Positions 59,201 to 64,000 of a stretch of DNA of 64,000 nt are shown one piece after another. Source of the DNA: Escherichia coli (GTDB lineage: Bacteria > Pseudomonadota > Gammaproteobacteria > Enterobacterales > Enterobacteriaceae). The first letter of the stretch is position 1. Each line of letters opens with the position of its first letter. The position numbers are program-made. The stretch lies in assembly GCF_030384885.1 (NCBI RefSeq), contig NZ_CP128614.1; one strand, given 5' to 3'.

Positions 59201-62200
59201 GAAGATCAGAAATGGTATCCTTCAATCCCTTAAAACCACCGTCATTAACTTCTGACATGACAAGGCACTGAGCCTTTCGTGGGGATGATGGATCTGGTGC
59301 CGGAGAACACTTGAGCATTTTAATTGATCCGCCAGCTGGTGGCCCCATGATGTAATCCGTGACAGTCATGGTAGACGGGCGGACTTCCATTCCCGCTTTT
59401 TCGCCTTTGCTATCCCAGTTGATAATGACAGTACCCACGAGAGACATAAGTTGTTCTGCCAATTTATAACCGGATAACTCCGTTACCCCTCCGATGTTCA
59501 TTGTTCCCTTATCAATATCCATGAACGACATATAGAAGAGGTTACCACTGAATTTTTCAGCGAACTCTTCGGGATCCTTTGCTTTAACCTGAGAAGTGAC
59601 AGCTTCAGGTGACTTTGTCATCGATGAGCCAAAATCAGGAATGAGACCATTAATCGATCCCAGAATTGAGGCTGGTCCAGAGCTAACTGAGTTAGCGAAC
59701 TGGCTTGGCGTACCCACGTTTTCAGAAAGGAAAGAGTAAGTTGCATTGCATGAATCTTTCGCAAATTTATTTAGCGCTTGCAGTTTGTTTTGGATGTCAT
59801 TAATCGTTGCAGCACAGTCAGCACAAATAGCTGAAACAGCAACGTTAAAAGCATAGATAGCCGCACCCTGGGCAATACCACGGGCCACCTGCACAAGCTG
59901 GTCCCCGTTGATCATGCTGAAGGACCCAAGAAAAACGTCAATACCATTACAACCGACAGAAGCTTTTGGAAACGACATGGAAACAAGGTTGGTATTAACG
60001 TTTGTTGTTCGGTAAGACATTGACCCGCCAACTATGCCTGTACGGGTTGCTGTGGAAAAGGTGGCCGGGCTGGTAGACGTCATCATGCCATTGAAAATGT
60101 TACGCATTGCGTTGTCTGCATTTGCAGTCGGGGCTAAAATTGCAGCACAAACAGAAAGAGACAAAAGTAACTTTTTGAAGTTGAAAACGGCATTACTGCG
60201 CATAAGTGCCTCCAAAACTGCCGCCAGCATTGAGATAATTGACCGGATCGGCCGTAGGCATGTCATAGCCTTCGAGTTTTTGGTCCATTATTTTTTGAAG
60301 TAAGAATGGGTCTGATTCCATTTCGGATTTATTAACGGTAATAACGCCATCATCACCGATGGTATATTGCCTTTTAATATCTAGAGTTGACTGAAACGAA
60401 GCGTCATCGATCAGATTCATGCCCTTCGCGGCAAGTATAATAGTGTTCTTTAATTCATCAGCGGAGATCATGCCTTCACTAATGCGCTGAGCTGATGTCC
60501 CATCCTTTGAAACCAGGAAAATTGTAGGTACCTCTCGAATTTTAAATTGATCAATAATTTGTGCATTGGGGATGTTAAAATCCTGAAAAAGGCCATTATG
60601 CAATGGCCTTCCATCCATACTGATTGGAAGAATATCTACCGAATAATAGTTCTGCATAAATTGAAGTATTTGGCTCTCTTCGTGGCAAAACTGGCAAGTA
60701 CTCTGGAAAAAGAAAAATAAACCTGACTTAGTAAAGATATCTTTCATTACCGTTTGCTGATTTTTTTCAACAACAGTGCGGTGAGCATCCAGTGCCACCT
60801 TTTCCACTGGTTGCCTGCGTTTTTCAGACATCATCGGGTTTTTAAGAAAATAATCTTTTGATTTGTCAGAAAAACGCGTACTGATATCCAGCATTAACCT
60901 TTGCGCCGTGTAATAACGTGATAGATTTTCTGCGGTAGGGTTATCCATTGCCTGCGTTAACAGTCGAGGCATATTCTCTTTTAGCCATTTTGAATTTAAA
61001 TCTACCTTTTCCTCTTTTGAAGGCGAGCTAGCAGCACCGGTTGGTGGCAAAACCTTTTCTTCTTCAGCTTCGCTTTTTTTAGCAGGATCGTCATACCAGA
61101 AGAAACCCTTCTTATAAGCCTGGCCTGATACAAAGGGCGTATCTTTTATTAGGGGTTGCTCAGGGCTGGCGTGGGCACCAGTAATTACCAAAGACATAAG
61201 CAAAACCATCTTTGAAGGCGCTAATGCAATACGAGTCATAGACCGTTCTCCTTTTCTGATGCGGTTATGATGGCATACAAAAAAAAGGTTAGAGCTCGTA
61301 TAGCATGGTCGTTTTTATGTTGAAAAGGACGGAAAAGGAGTGCTGACTAAGAAGATAGTCTCGGTGATGGAAAGATCATCCATCTTGCACATTGTGAAAA
61401 ATCCGGTGTAACAAAAACATGGTTTTATCGAATATCTAAAAGCAAATATTGCTTTGAAAACAGGTGTATTAAGAGCTGAAAAAAATCATCACCAGTAACG
61501 CTGTTTCTATATTTCAAAGAAGGAATAGCTAAGGATCAAAGAAGCGAACTTAGGCAAGAATATAAAATATATTAATTGAAAGCGATTAAGAAGTCGTCAT
61601 GCATAGAAGGTTTTAGAGAACCTAAGTAGTTTTACGTTTTCAACAGAAAAAAAGGTGAACATTTTTTGGAACGAAGAAAGACTGTATAAAGAAAAATCAA
61701 ATTATATCTTTACTTGTCAAGAGTTAATATTTAAGTTGTAACTAATATTTGATTGTAAAGCAAACAACAGAATTTGACTTAAGTCAATATTTAGATTCAG
61801 ACAAGGCAAGTTTCGCGATATCTTTTTTAAATTTAATCTAATTCTTCTTGAGAATACCTCTCTATGGCTGAAGCAGTTGAAGATAATCTGCAACGTGGAC
61901 AATAAGCATCATTTGTCACTGGCACAATGTATGGGCGTTTACATTTTTCGCAGGCACCTAGTTCTTCAATTTCTTTCATAGAAGTAAGGATTTCTATTAT
62001 TTTATTAACTTCCGGTGCGCATACAAAGTATCCCAGATTATGAAGGACACTCATTATTCGGTTGAAGTCAATTTGACGAAAACTCGCTTCCGGATTTATT
62101 GGATCAAAACCAAAATAGTTAACTGCGACATCAATAACAGCAGAAAAAGCTCGGCGGTTATCTGTGCGTTTGCTCCAGCCCCGGATACCTTTTTTGAGTT

Positions 62201-64000
62201 TTGTTTTTGCACCAGGCTCAAAATCGATATTTTCAGCAACATGATTACCGTACAAAATTCGTATTGTATTTTTATTTGCCCCAAGCGACATAGTCCTTGC
62301 TGCTCGCAATAGAGCATTAGCTTTTGTTTGATCGACCTTTGCCATATTAATAATCCTTTAACATAACTTTATTTGTTAAAGTGTTGAACACATCCTGACG
62401 GTGACTGGTGAACATAGTGTCATAACGTAATAGTTCCATCAAATCATCACTAACTTTTCCTAACCGGATGTCAGCAGACAATTCATAAGCCCAGGCAAAA
62501 ACTTTCGTTTTAAGTGAAACACTCTCTTCAATATGCCCTTGTGAGAAAGCAATTGTACGTGGGAAAAGAACGACATCGTTAATTGTTTTTAACGATGAAT
62601 AACCAATGTCTTTAATAGCATCAGCTGTAGTTGGTTTTAAACCAAAGAAAACACTTACAAACTCTGGTGCGAGCATTGAGATAAAGAACACCTGCATAAA
62701 GTAGTCATTCTGTATATCAACACATTTAGAACGCAACTCATGAATCTTCTTGGGATTATAGATATCCACTGTACCATTCAGAAAAGTCACTTTTTCACCG
62801 GCATCGTAAATACCATAGTCAATATCATTTGTATCATATTCACGAATTACATTGGAATCACCGTCCAAGACCGCAGAAAAAAACCTCTCCCATGTAATTT
62901 CCTTTCCGAGTGTACGCGGAACCAAAAAACTACCTGGACGTGTTTCCACTTCAAAAGCTAAATCAGCGGCTGTACTAAATCCTTTCCCAAATAGGCGACG
63001 CTGGAGAAGAGGAGTCCCAGTTTGATATGCAGAAGATCCATGCACAGGCAATAACATTAAAAATGCACGGTAACTACGAATAAGCGAAATCTCAGTGCGG
63101 AAAAGTTTACCGAGTAAGCTACGAGTTAAATTATCAGATTCTGACATGTGCTGATTGTCCTTGCGCCATTACAATTGTTCAAATCTTCAACATGGATTTT
63201 TTGTTAGGTGTTCGGTAGGGTGAAAAGTAACTTTTAGTATTTTCTTAAGGCTTGAATAAGCCTTAAATCTATCCCTTCAACCACACCGCTTACTTGTAAC
63301 ACTTTTTAACCAAACTGACCAGAATTTTATCAAAATTTCTTCGCATGCTAACGAAATGTGAAGCGATTAAAAAAAAACCTAAATCCAGCCCCTCCCAACG
63401 TTGGATTAGAATAACGACGTCTTTCACTGACCGTCATAAACTGACATTTTTACTTTTCATCAACCTCATGCTTACATAGGATCACTAAACAAAGAAAAGT
63501 GACCCTATGAATACCTCACATAGGGTCACTTATGTTTGAAAAGTGACCCTATGTAATGTCGTCATAGGGTCACTTTTTATAAAAGTGTCACTATGGACAA
63601 AGTTCCATAGGGTCATTTTTTTTGGAAAAGTGGCACTAGATATATGTATAACTTTAATAGAGCAATGCACATTATCAAAAGCAATAATCCACAATGGTCA
63701 TTCCCTCAAAAGTAACTTTAGAGGGTAGCGATGGAAGTGAGGCTAAACTCGCTGTTACTGTTTCTGAAGGCCCCTCCCGAATGGGGGAAACAGCGAGTGC
63801 ATTACATCTGTTCAATTCCCTCATCAAAGAGCATTCAAAAATCTTCTGTTCGTGAAAAAAAACGGAAATTTCCTCCGGTATAGTAATTTCACATCAGGAG
63901 GCGTCATGAGTAATTCGAATCTTATAAGTTCTATAGAGCTAACACGTAAAAATTTACGTGCTCAGATTGAAGGTTTGCGTGTTGAGGCTGAAGATCTCAT

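Follow-up and report, generated by a model that had tools for sequence, protein, structure and literature searches.

The trhR-trhY operon of an IncHI2 plasmid from Escherichia coli and its possible relationship to FlhDC-type activators

We analysed a 64,000-nucleotide stretch of Escherichia coli DNA (contig NZ_CP128614.1 of assembly GCF_030384885.1; hereafter the window) and concentrated on two adjacent minus-strand genes, trhR and trhY, which lie upstream of trhF. The trhR coding sequence (62347-63147) specifies 266 amino acids and runs from an ATG at 63147-63145 to a TAA at 62349-62347; that of trhY (61833-62345, including the stop codon) specifies 170 amino acids and starts with an ATG at 62345-62343. 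Exactly one nucleotide, 62346, separates the trhR stop from the trhY start, and an AAGGA motif (62358-62354) lies 8 nt 5' of the trhY ATG within the final codons of trhR, the whole junction occupying 62343-62358 on the minus strand. Another AAGGA (63162-63158), set off from the trhR ATG by a 10-nt spacer, is found in the trhR ribosome-binding region (63148-63162, minus strand) and is kept in the alignment with plasmid R27. The tight junction and the separate ribosome-binding site of trhY favour, at the level of sequence, co-translation of the two products. A preliminary description of the window had listed two coupled open reading frames (ORFs) of these lengths and positions, one nucleotide apart and upstream of a trhF-like gene, without giving their strand, and our coordinates agree with it throughout. 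Indeed, the minus-strand gene at 60193-61239 encodes a thioredoxin-like TrhF of 348 amino acids and is followed downstream by the genes for TrhH and the TraG-like TrhG.

Judged by sequence comparison, the window is the Tra1 region of an IncHI2 plasmid. The surrounding 2.1-kb region is 100% identical in many IncHI2A plasmids of the MOBH and MPF_F types from Escherichia, Salmonella and Enterobacter, with 834 plasmid records sharing at least 99% identity. TrhR matches its R27 counterpart at 206 of 266 residues (77%) and TrhY matches the product encoded directly downstream of R27 trhR at 145 of 170 (85%), both over the full length and without gaps. The R27 pair (R27 108907-110222) has the same lengths, order and near-abutting junction and occupies the same place, between the H operon (mobI, mobH, traD) and the F operon (trhF, trhH, traG); it differs in belonging to IncHI1, in its DNA sequence (74.8% identity, a 25% divergence) and in a gap of 2 nt instead of 1 nt. 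The wider gene order, with a divergent mobI/relaxase operon on one side and trhF-trhH-trhG downstream, is alike in the window, an IncHI2 record, an IncHI1 record and R27. Relative to R27, synonymous codon differences outnumber non-synonymous ones in trhR (96 versus 60) and in trhY (78 versus 25), a pattern that indicates purifying selection on both genes. Because the R27 match is gapless and full-length, synonymous differences predominate and at least 99% identity is maintained in 834 records, both ORFs are, on these comparative grounds, real genes and not chance ORFs.

The names follow from the same comparisons. A tblastn search with the 266-residue protein retrieved the depositors' name trhR in CP082465.1 (IncHI2, 99.6%) and CP119492.1 (IncHI1, 77%), NCBI proteins of this family are also labelled trhR, and in the R27 numbering trhR is R0123 and trhF is R0126, three genes apart (PMC7366339). 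Based on the full-length orthology and the synteny with R27 trhR/trhY, the pair almost certainly represents the R operon, trhR followed by trhY, orthologous to the R27 regulators. The suggestion of the preliminary description that the genes might be TrhR/TrhY-like, made from their position, is thereby borne out, and comparison with the R27 Tra1 proteins identifies the operon as a known transfer regulator. The same description had also considered an unrelated accessory system. Such a two-gene module might, for example, be a toxin-antitoxin or defence pair that has no part in controlling transfer and merely sits beside trhF. The lack of domain matches in curated libraries would fit such a module; however, the pair is orthologous to genes of published regulatory role, its Tra1 position is conserved in IncHI1, IncHI2 and IncHI1B, and family members occur exclusively alongside IncHI-type transfer regions. 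We therefore regard an accessory module as extremely improbable, and R27 orthology at the same Tra1 position leaves the idea of an unrelated accessory system unsupported. Since the operon is already known, a remote relationship to FlhDC, developed below, is the sole part that may be new.

The function of the operon has been worked out in R27. Activation of the tra operons F, H, AC and Z depends on TrhR and TrhY acting jointly, the F operon being the classical TrhR/TrhY-activated reporter, and when trhRY is overexpressed this operon is switched on even at 37 °C (PMC7366339). Silencing of trhR by H-NS at 37 °C leads to thermosensitive conjugation; HtdA counters TrhR/TrhY at the protein level, while the R operon itself is outside HtdA control, and the circuit has been described as highly conserved among IncHI plasmids (PMC7366339). 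HtdA has been termed an anti-activator (PMC9410318); its gene, htdA, is not present within the window. We assume, by analogy, that the function of trhR/trhY carries over from R27 to IncHI2.

Exhaustive and word-indexed searches found homologues of TrhR and TrhY confined to IncHI-type contexts. An exhaustive phmmer search with TrhY against 1.84 billion representative sequences returned 23 matches, all of them IncHI-type or fragments, and none of the 23 formed a bridge to FlhC. The most diverged TrhY match (P0043) sits in a decayed element truncated by insertion sequences (ISs). The most distant full-length pair is encoded on IncHI1B (pNDM-MAR-type) Klebsiella plasmids, where products of 251 and 174 amino acids show 28% (TrhR-like) and 35% identity (TrhY-like, E 1e-32) and the genes are syntenic, between mobI and traF-traH-traG. 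All four TrhY cysteines are conserved in the IncHI1, IncHI2 and IncHI1B homologues. The trhR-trhY gap measures 1 nt in IncHI2, 2 nt both in R27 and in a 54%-diverged lineage, and 192 nt in IncHI1B; because of the last value, tight coupling of the two genes is, as far as these sequences indicate, common but not universal. The IncHI1B pair (in pKOX3-p1, L005, at 7733-9373) thus differs from that of the window in lacking translational coupling and in an extra ORF of 180 amino acids, unlike TrhY, between the trhY-like gene and traF. The diverged pair occurs in about 1100 Klebsiella plasmid records, many of which are typed as non-mobilizable.

Two natural IncHI2 plasmids carry ISs at the operon. 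In pHNTS53-1 (L019, NZ_MF135535.1), an IS1A copy lies within trhR, which is no longer annotated, and in pXDL-CTX-M-14 (L020, NZ_CP043034.1) ISKpn26 is located directly upstream of trhR. These variants span the equivalent of about 62350-63300 of the window, and both plasmids are still typed as conjugative by MOB-suite. IS insertions in or near trhR could abolish or deregulate transfer.

Neither protein had been recognisable in the preliminary description, and this holds for curated libraries: when both proteins and every member of their families were scanned against Pfam and NCBIfam, only sub-threshold zinc-ribbon noise came up. We then compared family profiles. For TrhY, the comparison set of FlhC/AcaC-type proteins was drawn from eleven plasmid loci in addition to E. 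coli, and the TrhY profile aligned with it over about 150 columns at probabilities of 74-86% (E 5e-6 to 3e-5). In the hhalign alignment, C132, C135, C149 and C152 of TrhY fall on the FlhC zinc ligands C137, C140, C157 and C160; these four cysteines, encoded at 61890-61952 on the minus strand, may thus form a putative zinc site equivalent to that of FlhC. A C-terminal CxxC-N16-CxxC motif had been reported previously. The motif exists, but its spacing is N13 (C132-x2-C135-x13-C149-x2-C152), in contrast to N16 in FlhC. The zinc ribbon alone (TrhY residues 127-170) reached 86% and E 5e-6 against the FlhC-family profile, and all controls, namely TrhY versus the D family, TrhR versus the C family, reversed alignments and column shuffles, stayed at or below 1.3%. 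An AlphaFold2 (AF2) model of TrhY, built on 9 sequences, had a predicted local distance difference test score (pLDDT) of 71 and a predicted template modelling score of 0.62; its top fold match was FlhC, and the modelled fold was classed as that of FlhC.

For TrhR, residues 142-198 (codons 62554-62724, minus strand) aligned by hhalign with a profile of 14 FlhD/AcaD-type domains at 87% probability (E 4.1e-6, score 34.9). The scores of sixty column shuffles averaged 9.7 (standard deviation 1.8, maximum 15.7), with a maximum probability of 1.7%, which places the match, spanning the whole FlhD core, about 14 standard deviations above the shuffles. Full-length TrhR scored 65% (E 6e-5), and a smaller profile of 10 FlhD-like domains returned the same register at only 38%. 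Other TrhR segments and cross-controls remained at 0.1-0.5%; neither the first 100 nor the last 60 residues had matches, and a comparison of the N-terminal part with the middle and C-terminal parts for an internal repeat was negative. Single-sequence hhalign runs against FlhC, FlhD, AcaC and AcaD produced the right registers with insignificant scores; the signal for FlhC and FlhD required family alignments.

TrhY might be a true FlhC-type protein with TrhR no FlhD relative at all but a lineage-specific adaptor or chaperone that replaces FlhD. This is quite improbable in our view, since the FlhD-like match covers the whole core, far above the shuffles, in the subunit that holds the D position, and D subunits of related plasmids likewise carry extra or duplicated domains. 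A D-C gene pair that abuts or overlaps is found in E. coli flhDC, in pRA1 acaDC and in other MOBH plasmids, and the D subunits of those plasmids range from 91 to 226 amino acids, so that a long D-like partner such as TrhR is not unusual. Two tandem FlhD-like domains are present in AcaD of pRA1 (202 amino acids; L008, 46679-47287), in a D subunit of 226 amino acids from a Vibrio plasmid (L013, 771-1451), and in those of pQBR55 (158 amino acids) and a Pseudomonas plasmid (168 amino acids; L012, 1028-1504, and L021, 237-743, respectively). These tandem-domain D subunits are annotated merely as hypothetical proteins. In two Pseudomonas plasmids, a short protein resembling the FlhC N-terminus and lacking the zinc ribbon is encoded between the D and C genes.

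The likeness extends beyond the profiles. FlhD4C2 of E. coli (PDB 2AVU) also consists of two co-required subunits encoded by abutting genes in D-then-C order. It differs in that FlhD has 116 amino acids, compared with 266 in TrhR, whose N- and C-terminal regions are unmatched, in that sequence identity between FlhDC and TrhRY is about 8-14% and TrhRY lacks Pfam membership, and in that FlhD4C2 targets flagellar genes whereas TrhRY targets conjugation genes. AcaDC of IncA/C, SetDC of SXT/R391 and Rts1, and other FlhDC-family activators of MOBH/MPF_F elements resemble TrhRY in activating tra operons, in D-then-C gene order and in the company of a MOBH relaxase, MPF_F and MobI. In Thiodictyon and Marinobacter plasmids, a D-C pair is located directly upstream of traF, just as trhRY precedes trhF. 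In contrast to TrhY, AcaC and SetC are recognised as members of the FlhC family by NCBI models, and control also differs, with the anti-activator HtdA and H-NS thermoregulation in IncHI versus the Acr1/Acr2 or SetR repressors in these other systems.

Because the profile matches, the gene order and the two-protein requirement mirror FlhDC, SetDC and AcaDC, we lean slightly towards placing TrhR/TrhY, as a strongly diverged member, among the heteromeric activators of the FlhD/FlhC type, together with SetDC of SXT and AcaDC of IncA/C. According to this working model, TrhY would take the part of FlhC, contributing a helical core and, at its C-terminus, a Cys4 zinc ribbon, and TrhR would contain one FlhD-like domain (142-198) flanked by N- and C-terminal extensions. 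Together the two proteins would bind DNA as a complex and activate tra promoters, and HtdA would act as an anti-activator of this complex, as FliT and YdiV do on FlhD4C2. A promoter-binding TrhR-TrhY hetero-oligomer would be supported by the published genetic co-requirement. A literature search within one library found no paper linking TrhR/TrhY to FlhDC, and a 2024 Rts1 comparison (PMC10838148), whose table of SetC/SetD homologues covers SXT, R27 and F, gives no R27 counterpart.

Several results weigh against an FlhDC-type TrhRY. The TrhY-FlhC profile signal comes nearly entirely from the zinc ribbon; residues 1-126 of TrhY gave probabilities of 0.3-1.3% against the FlhC family, within the range of shuffles. 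Since the profile signal is confined in this way, the assignment of the whole protein to FlhC would depend on the fold match, and hence on one AF2 model of medium confidence built from 9 sequences. The curated FlhC hidden Markov models (HMMs; Pfam PF05280/NCBIfam) found no match among 9 TrhY-family members at E<=10, the curated FlhD HMM (Pfam PF05247) none among 11 TrhR-family members, and PDB sequences searched with a profile of the TrhY alignment likewise yielded no match. In addition, PMC9598596, a secondary source that cites Gibert et al., assigns TrhR to the membrane and TrhY to the cytoplasm, and a membrane-bound TrhR would be ill-suited to the role of a soluble FlhD-like subunit.

This last point leads to a different explanation, in which TrhR is anchored in the membrane, perhaps as a sensor or tether, TrhY is a cytoplasmic DNA-binding protein with a zinc ribbon, and the two are co-activators unrelated to FlhDC whose resemblance to it is coincidental. 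Such an explanation would fit the one hydrophobic stretch of TrhR, at residues 150-168 (Kyte-Doolittle score 1.74 in the window protein, 1.67 in its R27 counterpart), and also the missing FlhD/FlhC matches in the Pfam and PDB sequence searches; the TrhR structure model was poor (pLDDT 58.6), and fold searches with it were uninformative. However, the stretch includes Pro and Glu, and in diverged homologues, among them every one from IncHI1B, its value is only 1.2-1.4 or the stretch is gone, so that a transmembrane helix is not conserved. Moreover, it coincides with the core of the FlhD-like match, and the top fold match of TrhY was specifically FlhC. We consider coincidental resemblance of a membrane-anchored TrhR unlikely. 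Viewed as a whole, the locus is in all likelihood the IncHI2 R operon, an orthologue of the R27 transfer activators, with a mechanism slightly more likely than not to be of the FlhDC type.

The DNA around the operon contains several elements that could belong to the circuit. Within the upstream (promoter) region of the R operon (63148-63470, minus strand), a scan that called fewer sites than in shuffled sequence gave a promoter candidate, TTAGCA-16-TGnTAAAAT (63351 to 63324), which is a match to consensus only. The same region contains a 13-bp palindrome, AAAAGTAACTTTT, at 63223-63235, 77 bp upstream of the trhR ATG, and its position is kept in R27. This palindrome, of the form (A)AAAGTNACTTT(T) and 11-13 bp long, is hugely over-represented in IncHI transfer regions. 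The window holds 8 copies against 0.05 expected, all between 48.7 and 63.7 kb, with 11-mers at 48694, 50258, 51159, 53252, 60164, 62783, 63224 and 63709; further copies occur in R27 (12 in 40 kb), R478 (17 in 50 kb) and IncHI1B pKOX3 (7 in 14.7 kb). The flanks of the palindrome are not conserved. Positions common to the window and R27 are the site 77 bp 5' of trhR, one about 188 bp 5' of the mobI-like gene, one inside trhR and one at the 5' end of trhH, and in R478 the palindrome also precedes trhA and the Z operon, whereas htdA has no copy upstream. By its pattern of occurrence, the palindrome looks like a candidate operator of a plasmid DNA-binding protein. We also considered AAAAGTNACTTTT as a simple TrhRY box and rejected this: in the window, R27 and pKOX3 alike, the trhY-trhF interval, where the F operon promoter lies, lacks the motif even when 2 mismatches are allowed, and the palindrome is therefore not simply a TrhRY box.

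The trhY-trhF interval itself (61240-61832, minus strand) comprises 593 bp, is gene-free, with no annotated ORF in the identical plasmids, and contains the promoter region of the F operon (trhF-trhH-trhG). It is poorly conserved between IncHI groups, except for the block TTTTTTTnTATGCCATCATAAC at about 61264-61286. The block is located just 5' of the trhF ribosome-binding site, is kept in IncHI2 and R27 and in part in IncHI1B, and is a candidate for either the core promoter of the F operon or its activator-response element. A small ORF, R0125, between trhY and trhF is implied by the way the R27 genes were originally numbered. On the other side of the operon, the mobI-like gene starts at 63907, upstream of and divergent from trhR, and heads the relaxase operon. 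Between it and trhR lie four inverted-repeat units, AAAAGTGACCCTATG-N9-CATAGGGTCACTTTT, at 63471-63640 with a period of about 44 bp. These repeats are conserved in R27, and the half-site on their outer side is identical to that of the dispersed palindrome; they are probably the origin of transfer (oriT) region or a binding array for accessory proteins. An Rfam scan of 60000-64000 gave spurious microRNA-hairpin matches from inverted repeats only, far below threshold.

The identification of trhR/trhY, the positive switch of IncHI2 transfer, annotates a known control point in plasmids that are major carriers of mcr-1, extended-spectrum β-lactamase and heavy-metal resistance genes and whose transfer is thermosensitive. 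The broadest interpretation, which we hold to be evenly balanced between true and false, is that TrhRY is a cryptic FlhDC-type activator, that the D-C activators of all major MOBH/MPF_F conjugative elements (SXT/R391, IncA/C, IncT and IncHI) go back to one ancestor, that HtdA is an antagonist of the anti-FlhDC type, and that the palindrome AAAAGTNACTTTT is a candidate for the operator at which this circuit, or else its antagonist, acts. The reports on the R27 circuit (PMC7366339, PMC9410318) give no biochemical mechanism for TrhR/TrhY. If TrhRY is of the FlhDC type, the biochemical activity of the two proteins, so far described only genetically, would become testable, and the tools developed for AcaCD and SetCD would apply directly to IncHI plasmids, including the mapping of activator boxes by chromatin immunoprecipitation with exonuclease treatment (ChIP-exo), the search for mobilisable islands that hijack the activator, and the logic of anti-activation.

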